Translations under genes and position numbers: made by a program
Assembly: GCA_051382305.1 (NCBI GenBank)
Contig: JBBCAV010000313.1
Coordinates: 1-16,141, forward strand
Length of the DNA: 16,141 nucleotides
Origin: Bdellovibrionota bacterium FG-2
GTDB taxonomy: Bacteria > Bdellovibrionota > UBA1018
Direction of reading: 5' to 3'
Shown: positions 421-16,140 of the stretch, piece by piece
Layout: each line of letters opens with the position of its first letter
How positions within the stretch are numbered: the stretch's first letter is position 1
The notes under the pieces: generated by a model
Told to the model about the DNA's origin: nothing
The model's database searches: none
The model's input: the letters and a program-made list of their open reading frames with translations, nothing else

Positions 421-1434
421 ATGGAACAAAACAGCTTCACATCAACCGAAATTCGACGCATTTTCCGACTCGACGAAAAACTTACCGCGCGTCAAACTCT
501 TTTTAACGCGGAATCGCGCGACGAGATCCCACGGTCAACCCGCATGGCTCGCGGTAAAACTCAGGTGAGGCAATGGTCGATTGACCAGCTTCCAGATATT
601 GGAAAGCGGTTTGGGTTTCTCAGCAAGCCAACCACCCAGAAGGCGGTCTGCATCTTCACCCAAAAGGGGGGCACTCTCAAGTCAACCCTCACCTACACCT
701 TCGCACGCGCTGCGGCCATCAATGGCATCAAGACTGTTGTTGTGGGTCTAGATATTCAAGCATCAATCACCAACTTAATGTTGCCTGTTATGGTCGAAAG
801 CCTTACGGAACTTTCCGCAGTGCGAAACCGTCCTGGCTTGTTTCATATTTTTTATGAAGGGGCTGAACTCGCAGATGTCATTCAAAAAACCGACCTTCCT
901 ACTCTTGACGTAATCCCGGAAACCGCATCCCTGGCTATGTTGGCAAAGATGATTCCGGCCAACGGGTCAAAACAAAACCCTTACACTCTTTTCAAAGATA
1001 AACTTCTTCCTCTTTTGGCTGGGTATGATCTGGTTATTTTTGATAATGCACCCAATTGGTCGCCCCTTGTGGAAAACGCTCTAACTGCGGCCCAATCTGT
1101 CATAGCACCAGTTGCTTGCGACGTCGGAACATACCAGGTGCTCGACAACAATCTAGCGGCGCTTAATGAGTTTCAGGCCGCGTTTAAGATTGAGTGGGAC
1201 AACTTTATCATGGTCCCAACTCTGCTTGAAAAGTCCAAGCTGTCCCAACAAATCTATGCAGCCTATGTTGCAAATCATGCTGATGCCGTTCTTCCTGTGC
1301 CAATTCGCCGCGCAGTGATCGGTCAAGAGTCCAGCGCACTTAATCGTTCGGTGCTCGAATACGACCCGGCCTCAGATTTGGCTCAGGACTATTTCGAGCT
1401 GATGAAGGCCCTTTGGAAGAAAGTTGCGGGTTAA
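421..1434 (+). CDS. parA: ParA/Soj-family partition ATPase with N-terminal HTH-like extension (type Ia-like)
   Basis: Deviant Walker A QKGGTLKS, A' motif GLDIQASIT, Walker B YDLVIFDNAP, and a typical C-terminus (SVLEYDPASDLAQDY). About 70 aa precede the ATPase domain. Confidence 0.9.
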   Translation: MEQNSFTSTEIRRIFRLDEKLTARQTLFNAESRDEIPRSTRMARGKTQVRQWSIDQLPDIGKRFGFLSKPTTQKAVCIFTQKGGTLKSTLTYTFARAAAINGIKTVVVGLDIQASITNLMLPVMVESLTELSAVRNRPGLFHIFYEGAELADVIQKTDLPTLDVIPETASLAMLAKMIPANGSKQNPYTLFKDKLLPLLAGYDLVIFDNAPNWSPLVENALTAAQSVIAPVACDVGTYQVLDNNLAALNEFQAAFKIEWDNFIMVPTLLEKSKLSQQIYAAYVANHADAVLPVPIRRAVIGQESSALNRSVLEYDPASDLAQDYFELMKALWKKVAG

Positions 1435-1439
1435 TTCCA

Positions 1440-2894
1440 ATGGCCCTGCCCACAAACATTTTCATTGGCAAAGCGAAAGCTTCAACACCTCAAACCAAGA
1501 AACAATTTAGTACCCACAAACCATGGGACCAGCCGGAATCATCCCTTGTAAACGCATCTAATGGCATAGGCACCACGCAACAGACAGGGCCAGAGCCTTT
1601 GACCCATATCCTGATTGCGCCAGCTCAAGCCCCAATCCCGGTCAAAACTGAAGCACAGCCAGAGATTACCCCCAAGACAAACTTGGAACAAAGTCAGAAC
1701 AAAGTTGGAACAATCTTAGAACAAAGTCAGAACAGGCCGCCATTAAACTTGGAACAAAGTCAGAACAAAGTTGGAACAACCGATCCAAGTATCATTTCAC
1801 CTTTGGCAGAAAGTCAGAACAAAGTTAGATCACAACTTAGAACAGAAGTTGGAACAATCTTAGAACAAAGTCAGAACAAAGTTGGAACAAATGCGCCATT
1901 TTCATCCGTTGTAGGACTTCAACGGCGGATCATTCTTTTTATCTTTGAATCAACAAAAGTTTCCCGCGACAAAGCAACCTCCCCGATCGCGATTCAAAAC
2001 CTTGCTGTAACTTGCAAAACCACTGCAATGGCCGCGCAAGTTACGATTCGCCGTCTTGAGAAAAAAGGGTTTATTCGTCGTGTGGAGTTCAAAGATGGTC
2101 GTGGTGGTTGGTCGCGTTATGAGCTTTCGGGGGCGGCATTCCAGGAGCTTCTACATTTCGAAAGTCAGAACAAAGTTGGAACAATCTTAGAACAAAGTCA
2201 GAACAAAGTTGGATCACAACTTAGAACAGAACTTAGAACAAGCCCCTCTAGTAGTAGTAGTTTTCTAATTAGAGAAGATTTTAAAACTACTACTACTAGC
2301 GAACCCGATTTGCGCAAAGACGACCCGACCAAACTTCCTCCTGAATGGGAACAAGTTAACTGCATCCCCTTGGCTGACTATGGCTTTGGTGAATCCCAGC
2401 TGTCGCAAATTGTGCGTGACAAGTTACTCACTCCCGAGATGGTTCAGGATTCTATCTTCGCCTTTGCCTTTGACCTCCGAGTAAACGCCAAGGAGAAAGA
2501 GGTGAGGGGAGCACCGCTAAACTACTTCATGGGAATATTACGCAAGGGCTTTGCGTATGCACGACCGGCGAATTATGAGACGCCCCAAGAAGCAGCTCGG
2601 CGTAAGCGTTTGGAACTCCTCCAACGTGAAGAGTCCCAAAGACAAGCAGAAGAACAGCAACTTTTAGAGTTAGAGTTTTCGAGTTGGAAGAGGGGACAAT
2701 CCGTCGCTGAAATTGTCGCACAATTACCTGAGCACGCACGCAGACCAGGACCAGTTCAAGACTCAGCATTGAAAAACCATTTTGTAGAAAACATGTGGCC
2801 GGAGCTTCAAGCTTCTCAAAGCGATGTTGATCCCAGTGAGAGGGAGAAGATCAAAGCAACGATTGCTCAATCGTTTGGGGAGGCGAGGGGATGA
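1440..2894 (+). CDS. Putative replication initiator (Rep) with central winged-HTH and intragenic iteron-like repeats
   Basis: Lies directly downstream of parA; ATG at 1440 is preferred over TTG at 1413. The wHTH-like segment (IQNLAVTCKTTAMAAQVTIRRLEKKGFIRRVEFKDGRGGWSRYEL) is flanked by DNA repeat arrays. The C-terminal PLNYFMGILRKG resembles initiator C-terminal helices. The function is inferred. Confidence 0.65.
   Translation: MALPTNIFIGKAKASTPQTKKQFSTHKPWDQPESSLVNASNGIGTTQQTGPEPLTHILIAPAQAPIPVKTEAQPEITPKTNLEQSQNKVGTILEQSQNRPPLNLEQSQNKVGTTDPSIISPLAESQNKVRSQLRTEVGTILEQSQNKVGTNAPFSSVVGLQRRIILFIFESTKVSRDKATSPIAIQNLAVTCKTTAMAAQVTIRRLEKKGFIRRVEFKDGRGGWSRYELSGAAFQELLHFESQNKVGTILEQSQNKVGSQLRTELRTSPSSSSSFLIREDFKTTTTSEPDLRKDDPTKLPPEWEQVNCIPLADYGFGESQLSQIVRDKLLTPEMVQDSIFAFAFDLRVNAKEKEVRGAPLNYFMGILRKGFAYARPANYETPQEAARRKRLELLQREESQRQAEEQQLLELEFSSWKRGQSVAEIVAQLPEHARRPGPVQDSALKNHFVENMWPELQASQSDVDPSEREKIKATIAQSFGEARG
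1680..1889 (+). repeat. Iteron-like arrays 1-3: 15 copies of an 11-bp unit (AAGTCAGAACA / AAGTTGGAACA / ATCTTAGAACA / AACTTGGAACA variants)
   Basis: Counted by eye: 5 units at 1680-1734, 3 at 1746-1778 and 7 at 1811-1889. Most are head-to-tail with an 11-bp period and occasional 1-bp spacers. Confidence 0.9.
2162..2240 (+). repeat. Iteron-like array 4: 7 copies of the same 11-bp unit
   Basis: AAGTCAGAACA AAGTTGGAACA ATCTTAGAACA AAGTCAGAACA AAGTTGGATCA c AACTTAGAACA g AACTTAGAACA. Confidence 0.9.
2248..2299. repeat. Perfect 17-bp inverted repeat with 18-bp AT-rich spacer (candidate origin element)
   Basis: CTAGTAGTAGTAGTTTT (2248-2264) and AAAACTACTACTACTAG (2283-2299), immediately after the last iteron-like unit. 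Confidence 0.85.
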
Positions 2895-3355
2895 AACCAC
2901 TTCGTATTTATCTCGATAGCTCAGTGATTGGTGGATGCTATGACGTGGGATTTGATGAAGACTCGCGTCGAGTTATCGCCGGAGTTCATCGAGGTAAGGC
3001 GATTCTCTTAATTAGTGAAGTCGTTGTTCGTGAGATAGGGAAGGCACCGCAAGAAGTTCAGGACGTGCTGGCATCGATATCGCCAACAGCCGTTGAGGTT
3101 GTAACTTTGGATGAAGAGGTTCTTGTTTTGCGGGCGGCTTATCTTGCTGCAAAGATTCTCGGCAAAAAGTGGATTGATGACGCAACCCACGTCGCAGCGG
3201 CGACAGTTGCGCGGGCTGATGCTATTGTTTCGTGGAATTTTCAGCACATCGTTCGACTTGATAAAATGAAAGCGTATAATCAGGTGAATCTAGCAAATGG
3301 ATACGGAATTCTTACTATTGTGACTCCTCGGGAGGTTAATTATGAAAAAGATTAG
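2891..3355 (+). CDS. PIN-domain protein (putative TA toxin/ribonuclease)
   Basis: IYLDSSV at the N-terminus, ISEVVVREI, DDATHVAAA and IVSWNFQHIV give the conserved acidic PIN residues. ATGA overlap with rep. Confidence 0.88.
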   Translation: MKPLRIYLDSSVIGGCYDVGFDEDSRRVIAGVHRGKAILLISEVVVREIGKAPQEVQDVLASISPTAVEVVTLDEEVLVLRAAYLAAKILGKKWIDDATHVAAATVARADAIVSWNFQHIVRLDKMKAYNQVNLANGYGILTIVTPREVNYEKD

Positions 3356-3563
3356 AAAACAACCTAAGAAAGCCTTTGATGCCCTTGCTTTCAAAGCAAA
3401 AACACAGGCTGAGATAGCGCAAGATATTTCTGGGATGAGTAGGGCCGAGGAAATCGAGTATTTCAGAAAAAGCACTTCTCGTGGGCCACTTTCCGGATGG
3501 TGGGCGCGCGTGAAAGATGAACAGGTGATAAAGCGCCGAAAGAAACTCAAAGACGCAGCTTAA
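3342..3563 (+). CDS. Small basic protein, putative antitoxin partner of the upstream PIN protein
   Basis: 73 aa, overlaps the PIN gene end, RBS GGAGG at about 3331. The pattern FDALAFK...GMSRAEEIEYF resembles small proteins often coupled to this type of PIN gene. Confidence 0.6.
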   Translation: MKKIRKQPKKAFDALAFKAKTQAEIAQDISGMSRAEEIEYFRKSTSRGPLSGWWARVKDEQVIKRRKKLKDAA

Positions 3564-3567
3564 TTCG

Positions 3568-3999
3568 ATGATGCTAATAACGTTCTTGGTTTTTAATTTC
3601 ATATCAGGCTCTTCTTGGGCGGAACCGAAGGCTCCGGCGGTACATCCGACATATTATTATGGATCGATGCCCAGTTCCCTCATTGGCGTTATTAAAACGA
3701 TTACGTTTCCAGGGCCACCCAATTACGAAAGCCTTAAAAGGGGCGACAGACCGGAAGCGGAGTATGTTTTATTTTTAGATGAGCCTATTTCTGTTTTGCC
3801 ATTAAAAGAAGACAAGGAATATTTTCATGATCCAGCCTTGAATCAAAGGAAGATTGAGTTGGTGTTTTTTTCTGAACATAGCGTGAAGGTAATTGAAGGC
3901 CGAAAAGTTCGCGTGACCGGGACATTCTTTTCTGCACATACGGGACACCACCATACAGACGTGTTGCTGGAAGTAGAAAAAATTGAGGTTGTAAAATGA
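3568..3999 (+). CDS. Exported protein, DUF4431-like
   Basis: Signal peptide (..SGSSWA|EP). The motifs TFPGPPNYES..GD..E and GRKVRVTGTFFSAHTGHHHTDVLL resemble DUF4431. Confidence 0.7.
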   Translation: MMLITFLVFNFISGSSWAEPKAPAVHPTYYYGSMPSSLIGVIKTITFPGPPNYESLKRGDRPEAEYVLFLDEPISVLPLKEDKEYFHDPALNQRKIELVFFSEHSVKVIEGRKVRVTGTFFSAHTGHHHTDVLLEVEKIEVVK

Positions 4000-4682
4000 G
4001 CTCACCATTTATCGGGATCAAGGAACAAAACGTACTCCGCATTACCTATTTTAGGGCAGATGGCTCAAGCAGTACGTTTATAGGCGGTACTCGGACGTGG
4101 AGGAACCAAAATCCAGGCAATATTGTGGCAAGGGGGCCATTTGCAAAGGCGCACGGAGCGATAGGGCGAGCGGGTGGTTTTGCGGTTTTTCCCAGTTATG
4201 AAGTCGGACGAGCGGCTATTTTTAGCCTGATGGGGCTTCAAAAATATCAAGACAACACGCTTGCCGCCACGATTGGGGAATACGCTCCTGAAAAGGACGG
4301 AAATAATCCCGAAAGATACAGGAAGTTGGTTCATAAATGGACTGGCTTAGATCTAAAACGGAAAGTGAAAGACCTATCAAAAAAGGAACTTGAGTGTTTT
4401 GTGAATGCTATCGAACGAATGGAGGGGTATCGCGCTGGAAAGATAGTGGAAGATGCCTCTGCGACAAAAAAGGGGAATATCTCCGCAGTACAGAAGGACG
4501 ATAAGGGAATTATTGTTGCCTATTACGTAGTCGGAATGGGGTGGTTGGCAAAAGGAGCGGCGATAGCTCTCGCCTCAAAAGGAAAAATTGACGCTGTGGT
4601 GGCAACATCTAGGAGTGGGTCACTTTATCTGCGCACGCGACCAGATCAAACGGGGGCGAATAATTTGGCTGCAATGGGATAA
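3996..4682 (+). CDS. Lysozyme-like (RNxNPGNI) putative cell-wall hydrolase with C-terminal DUF3892-like domain
   Basis: WRNQNPGNI...FAVFPSYEVGRAA...YAPEKDGNNPERY...AIERMEGY matches phage-type muramidase-like domains. The C-terminal LYLRTRPDQTGANNL resembles DUF3892. ATGA overlap with the upstream gene. Confidence 0.65.
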   Translation: MSSPFIGIKEQNVLRITYFRADGSSSTFIGGTRTWRNQNPGNIVARGPFAKAHGAIGRAGGFAVFPSYEVGRAAIFSLMGLQKYQDNTLAATIGEYAPEKDGNNPERYRKLVHKWTGLDLKRKVKDLSKKELECFVNAIERMEGYRAGKIVEDASATKKGNISAVQKDDKGIIVAYYVVGMGWLAKGAAIALASKGKIDAVVATSRSGSLYLRTRPDQTGANNLAAMG

Positions 4683-4767
4683 ACAGGACACCCGCACCAT
4701 AAGGGGGCGCTGAACAAAAACAGAGGATGTTTTAGCGAGTTTGCGATCATTAAAAGAAAGGAAGTGT

Positions 4768-5016
4768 ATGAAACCACAAGACGAAAATTTGAATGAGTTA
4801 GAGGGTAGAATAACGACTGATACAGCGTTATGCGGTGGCCGTCCATGTATTCGAGGAATGAGGATTCGTGTCTCGGACGTATTAGAGTTGATGGCTTCGG
4901 GATTGAGCGCTCAGCAGGTTCTCGAAGAGCTTCCTAGTCTCACAGAAGAAGACGTGCACGCCTGCCTTGTCTATGCTTCACGAAGAGTAGATCATCCAAC
5001 GGTGCGGGTAGCATGA
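4768..5016 (+). CDS. DUF433-family antitoxin
   Basis: RITTDTALCGGRPCIRGMRIRVSDVLELMASG...PSLTEEDVHACLVYA is the DUF433 signature. ATG 4768 follows AAGGAAG. Confidence 0.92.
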   Translation: MKPQDENLNELEGRITTDTALCGGRPCIRGMRIRVSDVLELMASGLSAQQVLEELPSLTEEDVHACLVYASRRVDHPTVRVA

Positions 5017-5144
5017 TTTTTTGGGTCGACGAGCAGATATCTCCGGATCAAACAGAGACAACCCAACTTCTCAAAGTAATTTTGATTCCAGTGAGTGGGA
5101 GCAAAGCAACGCTTGATCATTCGTTTGGAGAGGTTCAAGGATGA
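5013..5144 (+). pseudogene. Truncated DUF5615-type PIN toxin remnant
   Basis: ATGA-coupled to DUF433. It begins MIFWVDEQISP, the usual N-terminus of the DUF433-partner PIN family, then loses similarity and stops after 43 codons. Confidence 0.65.
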
Positions 5145-5485
5145 CGAATCGTAAAATCGCAGCTGTGATTACCGACGCCTTGGGTGACCGAGTGGTAGTT
5201 GGTGTAAAAGAACTCGATCACTCTATTGAGGGACACTTTGAAGCAATTCCAAAGGACCTCATTCTGGAACTTCTTGAAAAAGTTTTAAGAGATCCCTCTG
5301 AAGTTTATCGAGATGATCGAAAAAAAGAGCAAATTTTTAATTTTTTCTACAGGCTCGATAAAAGTCAGCAGTTCATAGTTGCGGTTATCAAAGTCACATC
5401 AGAAGGCGCCTTTTTTTCAAGCATGTATCCAACCGGAAAGGGTGTCCGGAATGCACACAAAAACTACAAGAAGGTAAAGTTATGA
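5141..5485 (+). CDS. Putative BECR-fold (PBECR2/RelE-like) ribonuclease toxin
   Basis: HSIEGH...EKVLRDPSEVY...FFYR...FIVAVIK...AFFSSMY fits the pattern of BECR nucleases. It is coupled to a downstream small gene. Confidence 0.6.
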   Translation: MTNRKIAAVITDALGDRVVVGVKELDHSIEGHFEAIPKDLILELLEKVLRDPSEVYRDDRKKEQIFNFFYRLDKSQQFIVAVIKVTSEGAFFSSMYPTGKGVRNAHKNYKKVKL

Positions 5486-5799
5486 AAAAACCAAAGATAT
5501 TTTTCAATCCAATTGCGGGCAGCAGCATCTTGTCGATTACCTGGTTCCCTGGACCGTTAGGTCCAGCAGTAGAAGCAAATAATGGGATTGGCGTTGGTTT
5601 TTTTGCGCACAACGGGGATCTTTTAAGCGTCATGTTTGACGATGTGAATGAGAAACAAGATCACCAAGTGCTTGAATTTGATCACTACCGAGTTGAGGTG
5701 TCCGTCAATAAAGGAAAAATTTCGCACTCTCTCATTCCTCTGGATGTGCCAAAGAAAATCGTTCGCTCATCAAAGAAACGAACTAAAAAAGCCGCATGA
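5482..5799 (+). CDS. Putative antitoxin, DUF2283-like
   Basis: KIFFNPIAGSSILSITWF...GVGFFAHNGDLLSVMFDD resembles the DUF2283 pattern (Y-D...L-I...D..G.++G+). ATGA overlaps on both sides. Confidence 0.5.
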   Translation: MKKPKIFFNPIAGSSILSITWFPGPLGPAVEANNGIGVGFFAHNGDLLSVMFDDVNEKQDHQVLEFDHYRVEVSVNKGKISHSLIPLDVPKKIVRSSKKRTKKAA

Positions 5800-6419
5800 G
5801 GGTTGCGACCTATTCGCGTGTGAGCACCACAAAGCGCGATCAGAAACCTGAGATTCAAGTCCAAGAGCTTCGGCGCTATTGCAAGGCGCGAGGGTTTAAA
5901 GTCGTTCATGAGATCACTGACCGTGCTCGCGGCGGAACCGATGACCGCCCAGGACTAAAACAGCTTCTTCAACTCGTCCGTGCGAGGGAAGTGGACGCCG
6001 TTATAGTTGTAAAAATGGACCGCCTTTTTCGCTCCCTCAAACACTTGGTTAATACGCTTTCAGAATTCGAAGCCCTGGGGGTTAAGTTCATCGCGACTCG
6101 CGACCAAGTGGATCTCACCACCCCCGCCGGCAGGCTTTTCATGCAAATTCTGGGAAGCCTTGGAGAGTTTGAGCGAGAGCTAATCCGTGAGCGGATTATG
6201 CTGGGTCTTGAGTATGCGAAAAGCTGCGGCAAAAAACTCGGGCGTCCTAAGAAAAACGATTACGAAGCGGTTCAAAAGTTACGAACTCAGGGCAAGAGCT
6301 ACCAGCAGATTGAAAGGGCGTTAAAGCTTTCTTCCGGCTCTGTTTGGCGCGCAATTCAGGCAACCCCCAAAAAACGGCTTCCTAAAAAGCCCCAAGACGC
6401 ACGATCAGCGAACCCGTAA
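5796..6419 (+). CDS. Serine recombinase (resolvase/invertase family) with C-terminal HTH
   Basis: YSRVST catalytic serine motif, DRPGL, KMDRLFRS, TPAGRLFMQILGSLGEFERELIRERI and LGRP followed by an HTH. Confidence 0.96.
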   Translation: MRVATYSRVSTTKRDQKPEIQVQELRRYCKARGFKVVHEITDRARGGTDDRPGLKQLLQLVRAREVDAVIVVKMDRLFRSLKHLVNTLSEFEALGVKFIATRDQVDLTTPAGRLFMQILGSLGEFERELIRERIMLGLEYAKSCGKKLGRPKKNDYEAVQKLRTQGKSYQQIERALKLSSGSVWRAIQATPKKRLPKKPQDARSANP

Positions 6420-6455
6420 GGGGTAGGGGTACCCGCAAATCCTATCAAAAAAGCG

Positions 6456-6498
6456 AAACCCCAGATCATCGCTATTCCCGATGAATCTGGGGTTTTTT
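6456..6498. terminator. Intrinsic terminator between the convergent recombinase and vapC genes
   Basis: Hairpin AAACCCCAGAT-CATCG...CGATG-AATCTGGGGTTT followed by a T-run, with an A-run upstream, so it may act in both directions. Confidence 0.7.
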
Positions 6499-6553
6499 AA
6501 ACTCAGAAGTGCCCACCCCGAAATCAAACCGGTTACCAATCTGATGAAATTAT

Positions 6554-6937
6554 TTAATGGGAACCGTGGGAAAGTTTTATGCCTGGCACCCGTTCAAAGT
6601 GCTTCGTGTTTCGGGTAATTAGAACACCATCGCGCTCCAAGCAAATGCCAGCAATCAGAGAGTCGGCCATACCAATGGTAGCGTTTCTTGATTCAAGCTC
6701 TCGGCGCACTTTAGCAGAGCGTCTGGCGCTATCGCTTTCAAGTGGGATAATAATTAGTGCCGATAATAGAGTTTCGACGGCGGCTATCTGTTGATTTGAT
6801 TTTGCACCCGCCCAAAGTTCGAATGCTGAAATAGCGGTGGTATGTAGTCCCCCTGTTTTGATCTCGTATGCAATGCGATCTGCCATGCCCTTGCCTCGGA
6901 GGAAATCAATGAGTACATCAGTATCTGCGATAATCAT
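6554..6937 (-). CDS. vapC: VapC PIN-domain toxin
   Basis: MIIADTDVLIDFLR, AISAFELWAG, DSLIAGICL and LITRNTKHFERVPGI are canonical VapC motifs. Confidence 0.95.
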   Translation of the reverse strand: MIIADTDVLIDFLRGKGMADRIAYEIKTGGLHTTAISAFELWAGAKSNQQIAAVETLLSALIIIPLESDSARRSAKVRRELESRNATIGMADSLIAGICLERDGVLITRNTKHFERVPGIKLSHGSH

Positions 6938-7173
6938 CGCCAGTTACTCCTAATCTCCTGGGTTCTTTCTTCAAACTCATCGGCCATCTTTCCGTGAAAT
7001 GCTCCTTTAAGTCCAAGTGCCGCATCAATTAGATGCAGTTTTTTAGCCTCGTGTTGGAGATATTCGTGGAGCGCCTCTTGGACAATTTGAGAAAATCCCT
7101 TCATACCGCGTTTGGCAGCTAAACGGAGCAGCTCAGATCGTTGTTCTTCGGTGAGTTCAATGGTCGTTCTCAT
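6934..7173 (-). CDS. vapB: VapB-type (RHH/CopG-like) antitoxin
   Basis: MRTTIELTEEQRSELLRLAAKRG..FSQIVQEAL has an RHH pattern, and the gene overlaps vapC (ATGA). ATG at 7173 is chosen because the longer ORF extension runs through the promoter. Confidence 0.85.
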   Translation of the reverse strand: MRTTIELTEEQRSELLRLAAKRGMKGFSQIVQEALHEYLQHEAKKLHLIDAALGLKGAFHGKMADEFEERTQEIRSNWR

Positions 7174-7179
7174 AACAGT

Positions 7180-7208
7180 ACAATAACATGCATGCATGTG
7201 CATGTCAA
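7180..7208 (-). promoter_or_regulatory. Sigma70-type promoter of vapBC with palindromic operator in the spacer
   Basis: Minus strand: TTGACA (7208-7203), 17 bp, TATTGT (7185-7180). The spacer contains the palindrome ACATGCATGCATGT (7186-7199). Confidence 0.75.
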
Positions 7209-7372
7209 GTGGTACCCCACAATCAAGTGATTACGGGGTGCATGAAAACGGCACTAAGGAGTCATGTGAATTCAATGGGTTGGTTGGGGCCGGCTGAGAG
7301 GGATTTCGGGGTAGGGGACCTGCAAAGTAGGGCACACCCCGAAATCAACTGGTTGTGGGGTAGCTGAGCTGC

Positions 7373-8029
7373 TTATTGATGCTTCATTTTAATCTGAAGC
7401 ATCTTGAGATATTCCTGAGACACCTTTAATTTCGCAGCCGGTTCGTCTTTACAGAGTTTTTCAAGTTTAACTGCATTGAGGTCTTTCATAAAATCTTCTT
7501 TATCGACTAAACAGGTGAGTCCATTCTTTTCGTTTCTGCCTTCTTCTATGGGTGTAAATAGAAACTGATTCCATAAATTTGAAAAGGTCCCATCTGGGTT
7601 TTTGTCATCAGCACCAAGAAACAGGCGATGATCCTCTTTTGACCACTCCCTCAACGTAAATACGATTTCACGACTCACTGGTTCGACAGGCTTATTTAGT
7701 GTGTCGGTCATCAGCCCACATGAAAGCATGTCCCAACCCTTAAAGCTCACCTTGAACTTACGTGAAACTGGAGATTGTGCTCTACCGGGTAGCTCTGAAA
7801 TTTTTAGATCAGAAATGATCGCCCAACTCTTTGTTGCAAGATTTCCTAAACCGGGGACATTGGCCCAACCCAGCTTTTTGAACGCCTCCTGATCACAGTG
7901 TCTTTGCGCTGAAATGACGTCTTGCAGAGATGGGACTTCCTGGGCGAATGAACTCCCTATAAATAATGCAATCCCCATGAATACCCAGGATGCTGTACTT
8001 GAGTTAAAAGTTACTCTGAGTCGGCCCAT
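7373..8029 (-). CDS. Hypothetical exported protein (possible partner/immunity of the NlpC/P60 protein)
   Basis: Signal-peptide-like segment WVFMGIALFIGSSFA|QE, four Cys residues, and overlap with the end of the upstream gene. The start is uncertain (8044 or 8029). Confidence 0.6.
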   Translation of the reverse strand: MGRLRVTFNSSTASWVFMGIALFIGSSFAQEVPSLQDVISAQRHCDQEAFKKLGWANVPGLGNLATKSWAIISDLKISELPGRAQSPVSRKFKVSFKGWDMLSCGLMTDTLNKPVEPVSREIVFTLREWSKEDHRLFLGADDKNPDGTFSNLWNQFLFTPIEEGRNEKNGLTCLVDKEDFMKDLNAVKLEKLCKDEPAAKLKVSQEYLKMLQIKMKHQ

Positions 8030-9144
8030 TGATAAAACCTCCATTTATTGCCAAATAGCTTTGCTTTCAATTCAATTACAGAACTTTTAAAATCTGGATC
8101 ATCCGGGGGAAGCTCAGCAAAACCCTTGCGGGTTGTTGCGCTTATCTCTAGCGGATTTCCTGCGTCGTCCGTGCCGGTATAGATGCCTATGTGATTACTC
8201 GTGGTTGTGTGATCATCTGCCTTCAAATGAACGATCAAATCCCCTGCCTTCGCTTGTTCGAGCGAAATTTCTCGAAATTTGTCACTGGCAGCCAGTTCCG
8301 CGACGGTCATATTTTTGGAATCAATCCCTGCCGTTTGATATTGATAATAGACGAGACCACTGCAGTCGAAACTAGAGGGGCCAAGTCGTTCATCCTGTGA
8401 GTATCGAATCTTTGTGCCCGGATCGGTCATGCTTCGCAATGATGCGACAATCGCAGTCCGTATCGCCGAAGTTAATCGGATAACTTTTTTGATCTCTGCC
8501 TTTAGTTCAGACCACAGATATTTGAAAACGCGTACAGTGATCGGAATTTCAGAGGAAAGCGCTTCCGCCATGGCCCTGATTTGCGCGAGGCCAAACTCAG
8601 GCGTATTTTCGGGGCGACAATAGATCCGCGATTCTTGCGGACCCACAATTACTCCCACAGTTTGATCAATGATTGTGCCAACAGCCATTTCCCCAAATGC
8701 GGGGCCAGTAAAGGAGACTAAATAGTGATCTCCGTTTGGCGTGGGAATTGAGGCGGCACTGCAACCGTTAAAATTAAAAGAAAGCTGGCTAGCGGAGCCG
8801 CTAATTGATTCGTTACTAGGTGTCAAATCCTGAAATCGAATGCGAAATGAGTAAGAACCAGAGGGGACGTCTTGGATCCATATCACGGGCCATTCCCATG
8901 TTTCACCAAGGCGAAGTTGGTCAAGAGTCTGAAGGCCCGAATAGACCGGCTTGTTATCGACCCAGAGATTGAGTTTTCCAACCATGAAATCAGCTCGAAA
9001 GAAGATGCTTCCGGCAAATGAAGTCGTCTCAGCCATAAAGGCGAGTGTGACAAGCACAAATAGAGACCGGGCAAATCCAATAAAATTGGCATCAAAGCGG
9101 CTCATGACTCGGGCGGTCATACCACCGCCCGGCAGGGGTTTCAA
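8011..9144 (-). CDS. Exported protein with C-terminal NlpC/P60 (C40) cysteine peptidase domain
   Basis: YSQ..RLGPSSFDCSGLVYY catalytic Cys, AGDLIV, NHIGIYTG catalytic His. There is an N-terminal hydrophobic signal and a beta-rich domain. The true start may be a later ATG (9120 or 9104). Confidence 0.85.
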   Translation of the reverse strand: MKPLPGGGMTARVMSRFDANFIGFARSLFVLVTLAFMAETTSFAGSIFFRADFMVGKLNLWVDNKPVYSGLQTLDQLRLGETWEWPVIWIQDVPSGSYSFRIRFQDLTPSNESISGSASQLSFNFNGCSAASIPTPNGDHYLVSFTGPAFGEMAVGTIIDQTVGVIVGPQESRIYCRPENTPEFGLAQIRAMAEALSSEIPITVRVFKYLWSELKAEIKKVIRLTSAIRTAIVASLRSMTDPGTKIRYSQDERLGPSSFDCSGLVYYQYQTAGIDSKNMTVAELAASDKFREISLEQAKAGDLIVHLKADDHTTTSNHIGIYTGTDDAGNPLEISATTRKGFAELPPDDPDFKSSVIELKAKLFGNKWRFYQWADSE

Positions 9145-9165
9145 TGCCCCTATATTGTGCTATAA

Positions 9166-9193
9166 TTGACATTTACGTTATTTATGGTATATT
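9166..9193 (+). promoter_or_regulatory. Putative sigma70 promoter for the 9248/9643 pair
   Basis: TTGACA (9166-9171), 16 bp, then TATATT (9188-9193) preceded by a TGn extended -10 element, in an AT-rich divergent intergenic region. Confidence 0.55.
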
Positions 9194-9247
9194 TGATATT
9201 AAGGGCATGTCGAACTGATGTTGCATGCCATATGAAGGGAAGGACCG

Positions 9248-9646
9248 TTGGAGATCGTAATCACAGAATGGGCATTAGATTCGTATTTAGATCTAAATGG
9301 CCGCCCTGCTTTTACGAGCACGGAATACTGGCAGGTGATTCGTCCAGACGTGCTTCGCTTGAAAACATACCCATTGGATACCAAGTTCGGGAATGGCAAG
9401 TTTTGGTCCCCCGCACAGGATGGAACCGGGAACCTGATTAAGGACGGTCACAAAATGAAATGGCACCAGATGGGTAGCGGCAAAGTTCAAATACGGCTAC
9501 CGGTCGCAATGTTGGCAGAGGCGCTCCTTTGCGAAGCCTACGTTAAGGAAAACGAGAAGCAGGAAAAACGCCGTCTAGCTCGATTTAAGGTCCATATGCA
9601 GTTGATTAAGATGGGTCGATTTACAGAACGAGGGAGGCTTTTATGA
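9248..9646 (+). CDS. Putative RelE/HigB-like toxin
   Basis: TTG start after GGAAGGA. MEIVITEWALDSY at the N-terminus and QIRLPV...LLCEAYVK at the C-terminus fit RelE topology. It is coupled to a downstream HTH gene in HigBA order. Confidence 0.55.
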   Translation: MEIVITEWALDSYLDLNGRPAFTSTEYWQVIRPDVLRLKTYPLDTKFGNGKFWSPAQDGTGNLIKDGHKMKWHQMGSGKVQIRLPVAMLAEALLCEAYVKENEKQEKRRLARFKVHMQLIKMGRFTERGRLL

Positions 9647-10134
9647 GAGCGCCAGTTATAGCTCCAAATTTACAGGTTGAACTTTTCGAAATTGGATCCC
9701 AGATGAAACAGGCCCATTTGCCCGCAGCGTTCATTTCGGATGCGGTCCTCACCGCGATTGAGTTTGAGGGGGTCTACGATTTAATGAAAATGTGGACCAG
9801 CGAAACCGATGAGACTGACCGAAACGAAATCGTGGCTGACATTCAAGACATGATCGATGATTGCACTCAAAATGAAAAGTTGGATGGGCCTTATGTCAAA
9901 TTCAACGACCTCGACGGTATTCGTAAGAACATTCGCGCATTCAAAGACGGTTTACTTCAGATCGTTCTCCAACAGGGTGGCTTAAAGAAACTTTCGGAGT
10001 TGACCAAGATCCCGCAGCCATCGTTGTCTCGATTCTTCAGCTCAACCTCAATGCCAAGACGGTCCACGCTCATGAAGGTCGCCAAAGCTTTACGCCTCGA
10101 TGCCATTCAACTTGCAACCGAATGGTCCCGGTGA
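9643..10134 (+). CDS. XRE/Cro-C1 HTH protein, putative antitoxin
   Basis: C-terminal GGLKKLSELTKIPQPSLSRFFSSTSMPRRSTLMKVAKAL is an XRE HTH, preceded by an acidic N-terminal domain. Confidence 0.8.
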   Translation: MRAPVIAPNLQVELFEIGSQMKQAHLPAAFISDAVLTAIEFEGVYDLMKMWTSETDETDRNEIVADIQDMIDDCTQNEKLDGPYVKFNDLDGIRKNIRAFKDGLLQIVLQQGGLKKLSELTKIPQPSLSRFFSSTSMPRRSTLMKVAKALRLDAIQLATEWSR

Positions 10135-10477
10135 ACGAACGGATAAGAGAATCATAGCGCCAGGCAAAGCTTGGATAAGGAGGATTGATTGGATACATCA
10201 TGAAACTTTATATTTTGTCCCAGCTGGTGTGAGTCCAGCCTGATCAAAGCCTAGCAGGCAGGTCAGTAGCGAGTCTTGCTGGGTGCCGAGTAATCGTCAC
10301 TCTGAAGCGTAGACAGCGAGAGCGCGGGTTGTGAGGGTTCAGCTCCGAAATCTATGACATCGTGGAAGCCAACGTCTTTGTTTCGACGGAAAGCAGTAAC
10401 CGATACTCCCGATATCGCGAGGGGGTGGAGGAAGACCGGAGTTTCGGAAGATTTCAAGGAAGATGTCGCATCGTTTT

Positions 10478-11557
10478 TCAAGCGGCTTGATTTCTTAACT
10501 TTTCAATTTCCTTTTTTGTCTCCTTTCCGGGGTTGAGACGGACTTCTTCGATCATGGACCAATCTCTCGTTTTGCCTGACCACCGACTCGGATTTGCGAG
10601 CTTTGCCTTTTCGTAAACGGCGTGTCGGTTATTCAATATTGCGACATCTTTGCCTTCGTGGCGTGACTGTGGAGTCACAAACCGGATGCCACTGTGCAAG
10701 TGCTCGGTGTTGTACCAGGTTACAAATTTTTCTACCCAAGTTCGTGCTTCTTCCAGACTTGCAAAAACCCCATCCGGATATGATGGGCGATACTTCAACG
10801 TTTTGAATAATGATTCCGAAAAGGCATTGTCATTGGAAACTGAGGGTCGGCTAAATGACGGAGCAACGTGTAGCTTTTGCAGTGTCGCGAGCATTGTGGC
10901 CCCCTTCATGGGGCCGCCATTGTCTGAATGCAACGTCAGTTGATCCTCAGTAACCCCCTGTTCTTGGCAAGCCCTTGCGATGAGCTTTGCCGAGTGCTCA
11001 GCGGACTCTACCTCCTCAACGGCCCAACCCACAATGTAACGGCTGTAAACGTCCATCACGAGGTACAGATAATAGAACGAACCCCTGATTGCGAACCTCA
11101 AATACGTGATGTCCCAGCACCACACGATATTCGGACTCGCCGCGATCAAATCTTTCGGTCGCTGTCTCTCGCGAGGCTTGCTCTTAGATCGATGACTCAG
11201 AAGATTCTCACCCTTTAAAACACGATAAAAGCTGCTTTCTGATGCCAAATACACCCCAGAATCAGCCAGTTTTGCTACTATTTTCCACGGGCAAAGGTCC
11301 TGATAGAGTGGAGAGTTTGAGATCTCGATGATCATTTTTTTTTCCGCCTCTGTCAGGCTGTGTGGTGGCGACGTCAGAGGCCCCTCTCGCATGTCTCCCT
11401 GTTCTGGATTTTTCTCCCAGCGTTCCAGCGTCCTCAGGCTGAGTCCCAGAAGGTGGCAAGAGACTGCGCGGCCCGCTCCATTATCTTCTGCCTCGCGAAC
11501 GAGTTCCATACACTGCTTTCGATCCTCAATCGTCACTCGTTCTCCCCGGTTCCCCAA
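10478..11557 (-). CDS. IS3-family transposase OrfB (DDE/rve integrase core), probably expressed as an OrfAB fusion
   Basis: WCWDITYL, DVYSRYIVGW, LHSDNGGPM, DNAFSESLFKTLK and WYNTEHLHSGI. Confidence 0.95.
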   Translation of the reverse strand: MGNRGERVTIEDRKQCMELVREAEDNGAGRAVSCHLLGLSLRTLERWEKNPEQGDMREGPLTSPPHSLTEAEKKMIIEISNSPLYQDLCPWKIVAKLADSGVYLASESSFYRVLKGENLLSHRSKSKPRERQRPKDLIAASPNIVWCWDITYLRFAIRGSFYYLYLVMDVYSRYIVGWAVEEVESAEHSAKLIARACQEQGVTEDQLTLHSDNGGPMKGATMLATLQKLHVAPSFSRPSVSNDNAFSESLFKTLKYRPSYPDGVFASLEEARTWVEKFVTWYNTEHLHSGIRFVTPQSRHEGKDVAILNNRHAVYEKAKLANPSRWSGKTRDWSMIEEVRLNPGKETKKEIEKLRNQAA

Positions 11558-12030
11558 AGTAAGTTCGCTTTTTTTTTGAGTACCAAAAGTGCTGCTGTCT
11601 CAGCTAATGCTTTGTCCTTGCGGTTAAGGTCGCGCTCAAGTTCTCTTATCTTTTTCTTATCTTCAGATCGCTCAGCACGCTCTTGCGCTGTGAGTTTTTT
11701 CTCGACCTCGAGGCCCGCCGTCATACTCTTCTTCCATGCCACCACATGGTCCGAATGAAGCCCTTCACGACGAAGAAACTCCCCTCGCTGATCCTCTGAA
11801 AGCCCCTCATAGGCAATTACAGCATTCAACTTTTCGGTGGCACTCCAATCCTGGGGACGTCGCTCTGTTTTCTTCATGTTTACGACTGTACCATAACGTC
11901 TCAGCCACTTATAAACCGATGGAGAAGGAACCCCCATCTCTTCGCAAATCAACTCAACTGACCTTGAGCCGCGTGAAAGAATCTTTTGAACTGCTGACTT
12001 TTTGAACTCTTCTGAATAGGTCTGACGCAT
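11533..12030 (-). CDS. IS3-family transposase OrfA
   Basis: YSEEFKKSAV...SVYKW HTH and a coiled-coil ending LVLKKKA. Confidence 0.92.
   Translation of the reverse strand: MRQTYSEEFKKSAVQKILSRGSRSVELICEEMGVPSPSVYKWLRRYGTVVNMKKTERRPQDWSATEKLNAVIAYEGLSEDQRGEFLRREGLHSDHVVAWKKSMTAGLEVEKKLTAQERAERSEDKKKIRELERDLNRKDKALAETAALLVLKKKANLLWGTGENE
11568..11577 (-). promoter_or_regulatory. -1 programmed frameshift slippery site (A9G) near the OrfA/OrfB overlap
   Basis: Minus strand CTC-AAAAAAAAA-G near the end of orfA, the canonical IS3 location. Confidence 0.8.
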
Positions 12031-12334
12031 TTTCGATGTCCTTTTGCCCCGTTGTTCTTAACAATCTCGGTGCGACATCTTCTCTGCCATAGGGGGGTTT
12101 TAGCCAACGGCAAGTTCTCAAAGGGGATGACCAGGAACCTGGGAAGCCCAATCATTCTGGTTGCGAAAACATGCCACGGGCTTGCCCGGGAAGGCACGTC
12201 AGGCAGTAGGGGGAAGCAAGGGAAACCGTAGCCCCTCCGACGATGAATGGGTCTCTTACGAATCCATAGTATCGATGAAGCTGGGACACCGAATCTGAAA
12301 TGACCGGGACCCAGTGGAGAGAAGGGATGAACAA

Positions 12335-13139
12335 ATGAACGAAACGAATGGGAGAAACAGGGGCGGTGCGCAGACGCCAGAATCCCTGTCAACGAAACTC
12401 AATCGTCTAACTGAAACGGCGAGAAAAGATCCCGAGTTTCAGTTCCGAAACATAGCGCACCTGATCTCAGTAGAAATGCTGATCTGGTCGTTCCAACAGC
12501 TTCGCATGAGTGCAGCAGCTGGTGTGGACGGGGTCACGGCTAAAGATTACGAAAAGAATCTTCGAGCCAACATCGCGAATCTGCATCAACAGCTTGTGGA
12601 AGGACGCTACCGCGCCCAACCTCTGCGGAGGGTGTATATCGAAAAAGAAGACGGCAAGAAAAGACCTCTTTCGATTCCGGCGTTAGACGACAAGATCGTC
12701 CAGCGTGCAGCAACCGAGTTGCTGAGCAGAATCTATGAGAATGACTTTCTGCCCTCATCCTACGGGTATCGCCCTAATCGCAGCGCCCATGATGCCTTGG
12801 ACGCGATCCGAGCAAACATCACACTGGGAAAGGCAAACTATGTGCTGGATGCGGATATCAGCGACTACTTCGGCAGCATTGTCCGAAGCCAGTTAATGAC
12901 GATGCTCCAGAAAAGGATCGTGGACAAACACCTGCTGGCACTAATTGGGAAATGGCTAAACGTGGGGGTCATCGAAGACGGGCGACTGCTCATGTCTGAG
13001 AATGGAACCTACCAAGGCTCAGTCATCAGTCCTGTGCTAGCGAATCTCTACCTGCACGAGGTACTCGATCTTTGGTTTGAAAAGGAAGTAAGGCCGCGAA
13101 TGAGAGGAGAGGCGCTGCTTTATCGCTACGCTGATGACC
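12335..13139 (+). CDS. ltrA: Outer-intron RT/maturase, exon 1 (RT domains 0-5 up to YADD)
   Basis: AAGVDGVT, YRAQPLRRVYIEK, RPLSIPALDDKIVQ, SYGYRPNRSAHDAL, DADISDYF, GTYQGSVISPVLANLYLH, YRYADD. The start is uncertain (GTG 12314 or ATG 12335). Confidence 0.9.
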
Positions 13140-15039
13140 GTGCGTCACGAAACGCTGTGGAGGTAGCTTAAAATGTAAGTGCAATTATGTTGAAGCAACC
13201 GAAACAGCGGTGCTGTGTGCAAAATGAGGGTAGGCCCCTCGGAACCGCCTTGCAGGAGGAGGTTTCAAACCACCGTAAGCTGCATTGGTCAAAAGCCTTT
13301 GTGGTGAGCGTTACGGGAAAAGGTGCAGAACAACTGCATCAGGTGAGAGTCAGAGAGACGAACGAAAGTAAACCACTGAATACATGATCGAAAGCGTAGT
13401 AAAGACATCAAAACCGAGGGGGTGTCGTTAACTCGGGATCAGTTTGGAGAGAGCCTGATGATTGTCCAAGCGGTGTCCGGCATTGAGGTGGCGTGAAGCT
13501 GATTCAGGTTTGTGCATGGAACGTGAGAACCTAGAGTTTTGATGAAAAGGGAGAAATCCAAGCGGAAGACCCGTTAGGATCTGAGTACCGATGCAAAACT
13601 CAGGGACGGATTGGCCCGTAGTAGTGATGAAGTTCCCGTAATGGGAATGGAGCGAAGGGGTCGAATCATTCCGTTTTATTGATCTGTCAACCCAAGCAAT
13701 TGGGGAGGAGCTTATGGATAAAACAAAACCATATTGTATTTCAAAACAGCTGGTAATGGATGCTTTTGCCCGAGTGAAAGCCAACCGGGGAGCTGCAGGA
13801 ATCGATGATGTGACGATCGAGGAGTTTGAGAAGGATTTGAAAAACAATCTTTACAAGATCTGGAATCGGCTCTCGTCGGGGACCTACTTCCCTCCGGCTG
13901 TGAAAGCAGTGGCCATACCGAAAAGCAATGGAGGAACCAGAATACTGGGAATTCCGACAGTGCCGGATCGGGTGGCACAGACAGTGATCAAGATGCAGCT
14001 GGAGCCCTTGGTGGAGCCCAAATTCCACCCAGACTCTTACGGGTATCGGCCAGGAAAATCTGCACTGGGTGCAGTGGGAATGGCCAGAGAAAGGTGCTGG
14101 AGATATGACTGGGTCATTGACTACGATATCAAGGGATTCTTTGATAACTTAGATCACGAGCTAGTTCTGAAGGCAGTGAGACATCACACGGACTCAAAGT
14201 GGATTCATCTCTACGTGGAAAGGTGGCTAAAAGCCCCGCTCCAGAAGGAAGATGGAAGCGCGGTCCCAAGGGACCGAGGCACCCCACAAGGAGGCGTGAT
14301 CAGTCCGCTGCTTGCAAATATTTTCATGCACCATACTTTTGATGACTGGATGAAGCGTTGCTTTCCAAGTGTTCCATTCGAGAGATATGCAGATGATGGA
14401 CTTGTACACTGCACATCGTATGAGCAAGCGCAAAAGATCTTGGAGGCGATGAAGAAAAGACTGCAGGAATGTGGACTTGAAATTCATCCTGACAAGACAC
14501 GAATTGTGTATTGCAAAGACGTTGATCGTAGGAAGGCTCATGAAAATGAGAAGTTCGATTTCCTAGGTTTTACGTTTAGACCCAGGCTATCGAAGAACAA
14601 GAGGGGCAAACACTTTGTGAATTTTACGCCCGCCATCAGTCAAAAAGCAGCCAAAGCGATCCGTGAAGAGATCCGAAAGTGGAAAATCCATAATCGGAGC
14701 GATAAACAGATCAATGACCTTGCCAGAATGTTCAATGCACAGGTGCAGGGCTGGATCAATTATTATGGGGCCTACTATAAGTCAGCCCTATACCCGATCT
14801 TGCGGGAAATTGAGACAGATCTGATTCTCTGGGCAAAGAGGAAATACAAGAGATTTAAGGGCCATCATACTAAGGCGATCCATTGGTTGGGACGAATTGC
14901 GCGTCGCGAGCCAAGGCTATTTGCTCATTGGCGTCTTGGTCTCACATCTCCGGTTGGAAAGATGGGAGCCGTATGAGTCGAGAGGCTCAAGTACGGTTCT
15001 ATGAGAGCGGAGGGGTGAGATCCCCCTCCGCCACTCGCC
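13140..15039 (+). mobile_element. Inner group II intron (bacterial class D-like), 1,900 nt, apparently intact
   Basis: Begins GTGCG at 13140. Canonical D5 GAGCCGTATGAGTCGAGAGGCTCAAGTACGGTTC (14966-14999), and D6 ending CCACTCGCC. Excision restores the host frame GAT GAC C|TA ATC (YADD-LIATF). Confidence 0.93.
13714..14976 (+). CDS. ltrA: Inner-intron RT/maturase (no endonuclease domain)
   Basis: 420 aa with RILGIPTVPDRVAQ, GTPQGGVISPLLANIF, RYADD, FDFLGF and domain X (GWINYYG). RBS GGAGGAG. Confidence 0.96.
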   Translation: MDKTKPYCISKQLVMDAFARVKANRGAAGIDDVTIEEFEKDLKNNLYKIWNRLSSGTYFPPAVKAVAIPKSNGGTRILGIPTVPDRVAQTVIKMQLEPLVEPKFHPDSYGYRPGKSALGAVGMARERCWRYDWVIDYDIKGFFDNLDHELVLKAVRHHTDSKWIHLYVERWLKAPLQKEDGSAVPRDRGTPQGGVISPLLANIFMHHTFDDWMKRCFPSVPFERYADDGLVHCTSYEQAQKILEAMKKRLQECGLEIHPDKTRIVYCKDVDRRKAHENEKFDFLGFTFRPRLSKNKRGKHFVNFTPAISQKAAKAIREEIRKWKIHNRSDKQINDLARMFNAQVQGWINYYGAYYKSALYPILREIETDLILWAKRKYKRFKGHHTKAIHWLGRIARREPRLFAHWRLGLTSPVGKMGAV

Positions 15040-15617
15040 TAATCGCGACTTTCCAATTTAAAGAAGATGCAGAGCGCTTTATGCAAGTTCTGATAAAGCG
15101 GTTTGAGAAGTTCGGGCTTAAACTCCATCCGGAGAAAACTAAGCTCATCGAGTTTGGCAGAACGGCATGGACGAAAAGCAAAAAGACCGGCATCAAACCG
15201 CACACGTTCAACTTCCTGGGGCTCACGCATTACTGCGGGACGACCCGAAAAGGAAAGTTTAGCGTGATGGTCAAAACAATAGCAAAGAGGCTGGCGAGGG
15301 GGCTCAAGCGAGTTAGGGATTTGTGCCGAAATCAAAGGAACAAAGACTTGCTCGCGCAATATCAGCGGCTACGATCGGTTTTACACGGCCATTACGCATA
15401 CTACGGACGACGGTCCAACTCCCGAAGCCTAGCCATTTTCTTCGAAGGTGTGAGCAGAATCTGGAAGAAATGGCTAAGCCGAAGAAGTCACAACGGATAC
15501 GTTACGTGGGAACGGATGGAAAAGATCCTCCAACGATATCCTCTGCCCAAGCCAAGAATTGTTCACGGAGCATTAGGAACTCGAAGTCAAATCCCGCTGT
15601 TCGGGGAGTTTGTTTGA
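15040..15617 (+). CDS. ltrA: Outer-intron RT/maturase, exon 2 (RT 6-7 and domain X)
   Basis: FGLKLHPEKTKLIEFGR, TFNFLGLTH and LHGHYAYYG. Joined to 12335-13139 it gives 1,383 nt (460 aa plus stop) in one frame. Confidence 0.9.
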
Positions 15618-15900
15618 AGAACCGTATGCATTAACGGTGCACGTACGGGTCAGTGAGGGGCCAAGGGGAGCGATCCTCTTGGCCTACTCGGAAACCCCGT
15701 TTTTTCTCTCCGGCAATCCTAGGGAACCCCGGGGGTTGGCCTCTTGGGGGTTATGCGAACCTGGTTTTCACCTGAAATTCGGCCTTACTGAGACTCACTA
15801 AATCAAAAAGGGTCCGGGAACCGGACATTAGACAGGGGGCGAGGGCGTACTTTCGCCTGCGAGGACTATAATTTGAAGGTTAGTCCCGATGGGTGGACGG

Positions 15901-16140
15901 TCAGTAATCAGAAAAAAGGTCCATTTGCGGAGGTGCCCTTGCCGGATGAAACTTCGGCGGCTCCACCGGAAGCGCAAGGTGAGTTAGGATCTTCTCAACC
16001 ACAGCGCGCTCGACGATGGTTGCAATGAACGTTAAAGCCCCGCCGCAGTCGGGGCAACACTCTAAGTCAATATTGTACACCCTTTTAAGCAGCTCTGACC
16101 AACGCAGGCGTCTGGGGTCCTGGGGATGACACGGAACACT
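15901..16140 (-). CDS. C-terminal part of an IS91/ISCR-like rolling-circle transposase (runs off the window; not in the ORF track)
   Basis: Manual translation gives ...RRLRWSELLKRVYNIDLECCPDCGGALTFIATIVERAVVEKILTHLALPVEPPKFHPARAPPQMDLFSDY*. The W..LLKRV..ID...C..CGG...KIL.HL...PARAPP pattern is characteristic of ISCR-type transposase C-termini. Confidence 0.8.
   Translation of the reverse strand, partial: SVPCHPQDPRRLRWSELLKRVYNIDLECCPDCGGALTFIATIVERAVVEKILTHLALPVEPPKFHPARAPPQMDLFSDY

Follow-up and report, generated by a model that had tools for sequence, protein, structure and literature searches.

The locus and its elements

Our subject is a stretch of 16,141 nucleotides (nt), positions 1 to 16,141 of contig JBBCAV010000313.1 of Bdellovibrionota bacterium FG-2 (assembly GCA_051382305.1), which we call the window, and in particular the group of reverse transcriptase (RT) and transposase genes between 10155 and 15692. 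The list of open reading frames (ORFs) has on the plus strand two RT pieces, 12314-13171 and 14883-15617, around a complete RT of 420 amino acids (aa) at 13714-14976, and on the minus strand two overlapping transposase ORFs, 11533-12030 and 10478-11557. There are three Rfam matches to group II introns, RF02005, RF01999 and RF00029, all on the plus strand. We read the locus as a nest of three elements, an outer group II intron that holds both an inner group II intron and an insertion sequence (IS) of the IS3 family, and give this reading a probability of about 0.85. The borders of all three elements are established, and each intron pairs with its own exon through its exon-binding sites (EBS) and the matching intron-binding sites (IBS).

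10155 to 15691 or 15692, plus strand: composite outer group II intron, placed by alignment with relatives and by EBS1-IBS1 covariation
13140 to 15039, plus strand: inner group II intron of 1,900 nt, placed by RF01999, RF00029 and an exact single unitig
10445 to 12096, minus strand: IS3-family insertion sequence of 1,652 bp, its ends placed by copies on C62, C196 and C286

The inner intron is complete, lies within the outer one and has the same orientation, which is the arrangement known as a twintron. The gene it interrupts is the RT gene of the outer intron, which is present in two pieces.

12335 to 13139, plus strand: first piece of the outer RT, 268 codons plus one base, terminating in RYADD plus C
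15040 to 15617, plus strand: second piece of the outer RT, two bases plus 191 codons and a stop

When 13140-15039 is excised the two pieces fuse into an open frame of 472 codons, which from the ATG at 12335 encodes 460 aa, and the restoration of an RT of this length put forward in an earlier note on this DNA is thus borne out. The profile matches continue from one piece to the other: the first matches Pfam RVT_1 over profile positions 1-155 and the second over 161-204, and for TIGR04416 (353 positions) the matched parts are 7-215 in the first (251 bits) and 219-352 in the second (70 bits). The outer intron thus encodes an RT with a maturase domain, in its domain IV. Both pieces match the same nine related loci, with paired matches that are contiguous in each, and the top three (L002, L003 and L004) are the same for both. 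The rebuilt RT aligns without gaps with twelve uninterrupted metagenome proteins (P0002-P0013) at 73-85% identity, for 10 of the 12 over 459-460 residues, and L017, the closest of the metagenome loci, agrees with it at the protein level in the residues that flank the join. Judged from their sequences the two pieces are one gene of one lineage; the earlier note had named a clustering of the two exons with different RT lineages as the outcome that would speak against a twintron, and the shared relatives and gap-free proteins place both in one.

The frame that enters the inner intron ends at a stop at 13171, ten codons in, with loss of everything after YADD. Production of the full outer RT would therefore require that the inner intron is first spliced out, as the earlier note had proposed. 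In the public protein set the first piece is listed alone as a protein of 278 aa (P0001), and the locus illustrates how gene callers can break one retroelement into separate pieces. A sequence search of the PDB gave no class assignment for either the outer or the inner RT.

The outer intron and the insertion sequence within it

The outer intron lies in a repeat of about 115 nt, and its ribozyme parts are as follows.

10141 to 10154 (5' part) and 15692 to 15790 (3' part), plus strand: host repeat of the outer intron, delimited by comparison of the copies in the genome
10149 to 10154, plus strand: IBS1 of the outer intron, the last six exon bases, with 5 of 6 pairs to the EBS1 loop
10379 to 10384, plus strand: EBS1 loop of the outer intron, in the hairpin 10373-10388
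10230 to 10444, plus strand: domain I core up to the IS, matching RF02005 and including the EBS1 hairpin
12101 to 12334, plus strand: the rest of domain I and domains II to IVa, 5' of the ORF, colinear with relatives
15619 to 15651, plus strand: putative domain V, a hairpin of 33 nt aligned with L002, L004, L006, L008 and L017-L019
15652 to 15692, plus strand: putative domain VI and 3' end, aligned with relatives, with a bulged A at 15686

Without the IS, one GTTT copy and the inner intron, the outer intron's own sequence is 1,981-1,982 nt. The alignment with relatives and the covariation of EBS1 with IBS1 across eight of them place the 5' end at 10155, 60 nt from the 10215 given in the earlier note, which has to be corrected in this respect. 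In these eight relatives (L003, L008, L006, L005, L025, L021, L023 and L018) the loop homologous to EBS1 pairs at least 6/6 with the exon of the same locus, and their 5' exons all differ. GTGTG at 10227 was considered as a 5' end and rejected after alignment with relatives. The RF02005 match (10230-10451) scores 115.5 bits against a cut-off of 49, with an E value of 1e-32, and its last seven bases belong to the IS.

With regard to the 3' end, the intron ends either with CTCGG at 15691 or with CTCGGA at 15692. The base after CTCGG is A in the window and in all three relatives for which the 3' end was read, so that the two positions cannot be told apart; the earlier value of 15692 holds to within one base, with 15691 equally possible. 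With an end at 15692 the bulged A at 15686 would stand seven bases away from it. In L017, L018 and L019 the BLAST match of the rebuilt outer intron stops exactly at its last base.

Some features of this ribozyme are unusual. The intron begins TAGCG and so departs from the GUGYG expected at the 5' end of a group II intron; seven close relatives, among L017-L019, L021-L023, L025 and L039, begin TCGCG, and more distant ones GTGCG or GAGCG. The putative domain V has AAC in place of the usual AGC and is without a GNRA loop, and RF00029 gives no match to it even at E values up to 1. The AAC is common to L017-L019 and L002, and in L017-L019 it stands opposite a G. We considered the 5' U and the AAC as signs of decay and rejected this, as both are present in close relatives (seven for the 5' end and four for domain V); on this comparison they are best taken as traits of the lineage, which would be neutral as to whether the outer intron is active. 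The outer intron would belong to a lineage, so far little described, in which a 5' U and an AAC domain V are native. A published mobile intron, TeI4h, naturally begins with U (PMC2882425).

The IS has the following parts.

11533 to 12030, minus strand: orfA, 165 aa, helix-turn-helix protein (HTH_Tnp_1)
10478 to 11599, minus strand: orfB frame, DDE integrase core (Pfam rve), in the -1 frame relative to orfA
10441 to 10444, no strand: left copy of the target-site duplication GTTT, flanking the IS
12097 to 12100, no strand: right copy of the target-site duplication GTTT, flanking the IS

For the IS3 family we looked for two overlapping ORFs with a -1 frameshift at an A-rich slippery run, and the overlap of orfA and orfB includes a run of nine A (11569-11577), giving a predicted frameshift layout of this kind. 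The IS3-family transposase model NF033516 matches orfB at 193 bits (cut-off 160), and orfA covers positions 1-66 of the profile. IS3 elements make short target duplications of 3-4 bp, and their terminal inverted repeats end in TG...CA. The copy on C62 carries a 4-bp duplication of its own, TTGG. The tips of the element read CGGAAG... and ...GGGGG and so do not conform to TG...CA; an inverted core with 15 of 16 bases matching starts 14 nt inward of each end.

Deletion of the IS and one GTTT makes the outer domain I colinear with that of L039, and the claim that this deletion rebuilds the 5' RNA region stands. The insertion point falls at model position 218/219 of the 225 in RF02005, where the helix closing the EBS1-bearing subdomain has its 3' edge, which puts the IS inside domain I as the earlier note had it. 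The IS, in antisense orientation, splits the first 290 nt of the outer domain I from the remainder.

We propose that an outer intron without an endonuclease inserted into the 115-nt repeat, and that an IS3-family element would have transposed into its domain I, just 3' of the helix closing the EBS1-bearing subdomain. The inner intron and the IS could have entered in either order. The view that both insertions are recent is supported by the gap-free outer ORF, by the intact ORFs and target duplication of the IS and by the identity of the inner intron copies discussed below.

As 1.65 kb of antisense IS separates the two parts of domain I, the outer ribozyme has probably been disabled and the intron stranded. 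The outer intron is single copy, with a depth of 40.5 in the unitigs of sequencing run X1 and 40.7 for the upstream flank, which fits a disabled ribozyme. The earlier note had suggested a search for uninterrupted copies, and its own genome has no other copy of the outer intron. None of 60 related genomes has anything above 56% identity to the outer RT. Six other copies or part-copies of the host repeat, on C364, C388, C260, C208, C284 and C302, are empty at the matching position.

It can be argued that the composite intron still functions, either because it folds despite an IS at the edge or junction of a domain I helix, or with the help of a related RT in trans. Organellar group II introns split within domain I still trans-splice; the canonical pairs of the closing helix are placed 5' of the IS by the RF02005 alignment, and the outer ORF is intact. 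However, 1.65 kb of antisense RNA would lie inside domain I, the unitigs of X1 show no outer allele free of the intron or of the IS, and the intron is single copy although the six other repeat copies or part-copies are empty. As to help in trans, none of the other RTs that a search with the rebuilt outer RT finds in the genome exceeds 36% identity to it. We therefore consider a functional outer intron unlikely, and prefer to see it as stranded by the IS.

The inner intron and its recurrence at RYADD

There is more than one copy of the inner intron, and it is found repeatedly at sites encoding RYADD.

13714 to 14976, plus strand: inner RT/maturase, 420 aa, with RVT_1 and GIIM and without an endonuclease domain
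13126 to 13132 and 13133 to 13138, plus strand: IBS2 and IBS1 of the inner intron, the bases encoding (R)YADD
13393 to 13399, plus strand: EBS2 of the inner intron, with 7 of 7 pairs to 13126-13132 (exon positions -14 to -8)
13423 to 13429, plus strand: EBS1 of the inner intron, pairing with exon positions -2 to -7

It opens with GTGCG at 13140, and its 3' end at 15039 coincides with the end of the RF00029 model. RF01999 matches 13226-13344 (116.3 bits) and RF00029, for domains V/VI, matches 14964-15039 (52.8 bits), and the element thus has the 5' GUGYG, the domain I, the domains V/VI and the RT plus X that define a group II intron. The RT scores 432 bits on TIGR04416 (cut-off 300), and its Pfam matches are confined to RVT_1, GIIM and a weak overlapping RdRP_1, so that it has no D/En domain.

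The insertion point, between 13139 and 13140, follows RYADD plus the C of the outer RT. The EBS assignments are supported by relatives: the column of L013 homologous to EBS2 pairs with the exon of L013 itself, and the loop homologous to EBS1 pairs 6/6 with the last six exon bases in C201, L013 and L014, which have three different exons. Two other candidates for EBS1, GGTCA at 13287 and GGTGTC at 13471, were rejected as both are conserved in C201 despite its differing exon. The proposed course of events is that the inner intron, unrelated to the outer one and also without an endonuclease, would later have entered the outer RT gene by reverse splicing into its sense strand, guided by pairing of EBS2 and EBS1 with the bases encoding RYADD, the active site of the RT.

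Read-level data are the unitigs of run X1, which hold the full locus and are probably from the sample from which the contig was assembled, and those of a soil run, X2, in which the inner intron is covered from 13124 to 14612; there is no single record across the whole window. X1 has the inner intron as one unitig of 1,900 nt without variants, at a depth of 111.3 or about 2.7 times the 40.5 of the outer intron, which indicates that its copies are identical. Loose ends in X1 reveal a second RT gene that carries this intron, again preceded by the 16 nt of 13124-13139; the outer flanks of this gene match an RT on C317 that is without the intron in the bin. This RT (C317:42846-44174, minus strand) is a group II RT of a third lineage, 36% identical to the outer RT. 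X2 has a 94%-alike copy of the inner intron after ...MVRYADD, and overall the 16-nt sequence precedes the intron at two further sites.

In X1 the junction unitig of the second site begins exactly 30 nt ahead of the intron, a sign that filled and empty alleles sharing one 5' exon may coexist there. In the binned C317 allele 4 of the 17 bases adjoining the site differ, and the 13 and 30 bases farther out are identical, a pattern that could also arise if homing converted a short tract of the 5' exon. Introns without an endonuclease that use replication forks are not expected to cause such conversion. If filled and empty sites do coexist, they would provide a natural system for measuring the mobility of introns into other introns.

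The identical copies, the presence at two or more sites in one sample and the intact RT with its YADD lead us to infer that the inner intron is active now or was so very recently. It would be a further step to see in the source sample a live hyperparasite system, with the inner intron now spreading among unrelated group II RT genes of one population, and this we offer only tentatively, thinking it rather less probable than not.

A plasmid collection has 11 records that match 80% or more of the inner intron, and of the nine examined, at 65-69% nucleotide identity, six have the intron inserted after RYADD plus one base. One of the remaining three is in a degenerate look-alike of the site and two are elsewhere. 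The six are in S. meliloti (Sinorhizobium) pSymA (CP140947.1), C. pasteurianum (Clostridium; NC_021183.1), Ca. Megaera (AP017965.1), a Rickettsia endosymbiont (AP029037.1), Peribacillus (NZ_CP133764.1) and V. parahaemolyticus (NZ_KP791968.1). These plasmid twintrons share 65-69% DNA identity with the inner intron over 86-95% of its length, the RT genes that they interrupt are different ones, and three of the six have annotated RT fragments on at least one side. The plasmid search suggests that the lineage of RYADD-homing introns is widespread.

Introns of this kind are in print. B.th.I3, M.a.I5, UA.I3 and P.l.I2 are introns of about 1.8-1.9 kb with an RT that lacks an endonuclease domain; their IBS1 and IBS2 are the RYADD coding sequence, they insert after RYADD plus one base, and they build twintrons in the RT ORFs of other group II introns, the host of B.th.I3 being described as not a group II intron (Tourasse and Kolsto 2008, PMC2504315). 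The inner intron is like the B.th.I3 type in its insertion after RYADD, in having IBS1 and IBS2 inside these codons and in its RT without D/En, and the targets can be compared directly, CGCTACGCTGATGACC for the inner intron and AGGTATGCTGATGACT for B.th.I3. A further criterion of the type is 58-67% whole-length identity to the named introns, for which the 65-69% to the six plasmid introns was used as a stand-in. The class label of the literature is 'B-like' (g2 in PMC3552965). In its behaviour the inner intron belongs with the RYADD-homing group, and since introns that home to RYADD and build twintrons are already in print (PMC2504315), the arrangement is less unusual than the earlier note implied.

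Recurrence at RYADD might also mean that the nesting is a regulatory device that has been kept, in which the inner intron controls whether the outer RT is made, and is not plain parasitism. The site does recur, in six of the nine plasmid relatives and in the literature, and an intron in sense orientation would be removable by splicing. Base pairing to a conserved coding motif is enough to explain the recurrence, however, and the hosts belong to different RT lineages, with the published host of B.th.I3 not even a group II intron (PMC2504315, as above). In addition the exact 14-nt site is found at none of 57 YADD-type sites in the metagenome loci, the best having one mismatch. We give the regulatory explanation hardly any weight, and take the inner intron to be a parasite of RT genes.

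Several observations weigh against the nest as we have drawn it. EBS1 of the inner intron is mismatched at exon position -1, and the outer IBS1-EBS1 pairing has one mismatch (5/6). The outer intron has a 5' U and not G, an AAC domain V and no match to RF00029. A phylum-wide search with the inner RT matched 6 of 401 genomes, its own included, and none of the five phylum loci with a readable 5' exon (inner RT identity 53-59%) is at a RYADD site; L013 is not at RYADD either, and L014 is in an RT gene at another site. As these loci sit elsewhere, the preference for RYADD appears to be confined to a narrower clade. Lastly, the X1 unitigs extend just 27-30 nt into each repeat and are not independent long-range proof of the arrangement, which raises the question of an assembly artefact.

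In such an artefact the IS and the multi-copy intron, both of which are repeats, would have been wrongly threaded into a single-copy intron. The genome is a bin of 433 contigs, 85% complete, and X1, the sole run to hold the full locus, is probably the source sample. The X1 unitigs nevertheless support each single junction; at all four inner junctions they lead out of unique sequence into the repeat, and there is no branch at 13139. The flanks of each insert join to the base, giving an ORF gap-free against twelve proteins and a domain I colinear with L039 once the IS is removed; the IS has its 4-bp duplication, and the site of the inner intron is one used elsewhere by its lineage. An artefact is in our judgement very improbable, and we retain the three-element nest.

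Three related loci may be mentioned here. L014:1585-4241, on a contig of an Actinomycetes metagenome-assembled genome, has a relative of the inner intron, with 55% RT identity, inserted into a related RT ORF behind ...LHPVKTKIV, so that the wider group also nests in RT genes at other targets. In the same genome as the window, C201:2091-3981 is related to the inner intron at 65% identity and sits outside any RT gene, and C19:57-1334 and C201 make two further group II introns or RTs.

Comparison with other nested introns, and the surroundings

The locus as a whole can be compared with Thermosynechococcus elongatus, which has twintrons in which the inner copies are identical and the outer ones diverged, and also an intron ORF broken by an IS, TeI4g::ISEL2f (Mohr et al. 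2010, PMC2882425). As in that species, the ORF of the outer intron is interrupted by another group II intron. The differences are that the T. elongatus inner introns have no ORF and lie between two start codons, so that RT can be made without splicing, that the IS and the inner intron are in different copies there and in one copy here, and that the IS is there in the intron ORF and here in the ribozyme (PMC2882425).

A review (PMC4424553) mentions several twintrons of bacteria and describes the arrays of nested introns in Methanosarcina acetivorans (Dai and Zimmerly 2003). Our locus resembles the latter in site-specific homing into other group II introns, in non-essential DNA, and differs in that M. 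acetivorans nests up to five layers, compared with two intron layers plus an IS here (PMC4424553). In the literature searched we found no description of an inner intron and an IS together in one outer intron. Nesting of this sort is already known, and the locus is a simple sum of two known types of event. To the introns that parasitise the active-site codons of other retroelements it contributes a case from the environment in which a single sample has two or more occupied sites, and it leaves group II intron biology as it was.

The host repeat of the outer intron is intergenic and conserved, and the genome has at least six further copies or part-copies of it. It has no Rfam match at the gathering score, and by eye it did not fit a terminator, an integron attC site or a Tn3 end. 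In the window it comes after a gene with a weak helix-turn-helix match, and the protein directly upstream of the outer intron is of the HTH_3 type. On C284 the repeat adjoins ORFs that by eye resemble a toxin-antitoxin pair.

Downstream, 15901-16140 on the minus strand is an open-ended ORF with a weak match, 37.7 bits and far under the cut-off, to the C-terminus of ISCR clade Ia transposases. A 96%-identical paralogue of this stretch is found at C208:2358-2719, beside another copy of the 115-nt repeat. Upstream, 421-10134 includes genes for a ParA-like ATPase, a serine resolvase, a PIN/RHH pair, a DUF433 protein, a PBECR2 nuclease and an NlpC/P60 hydrolase, and these surroundings look like a plasmid or a mobile island.

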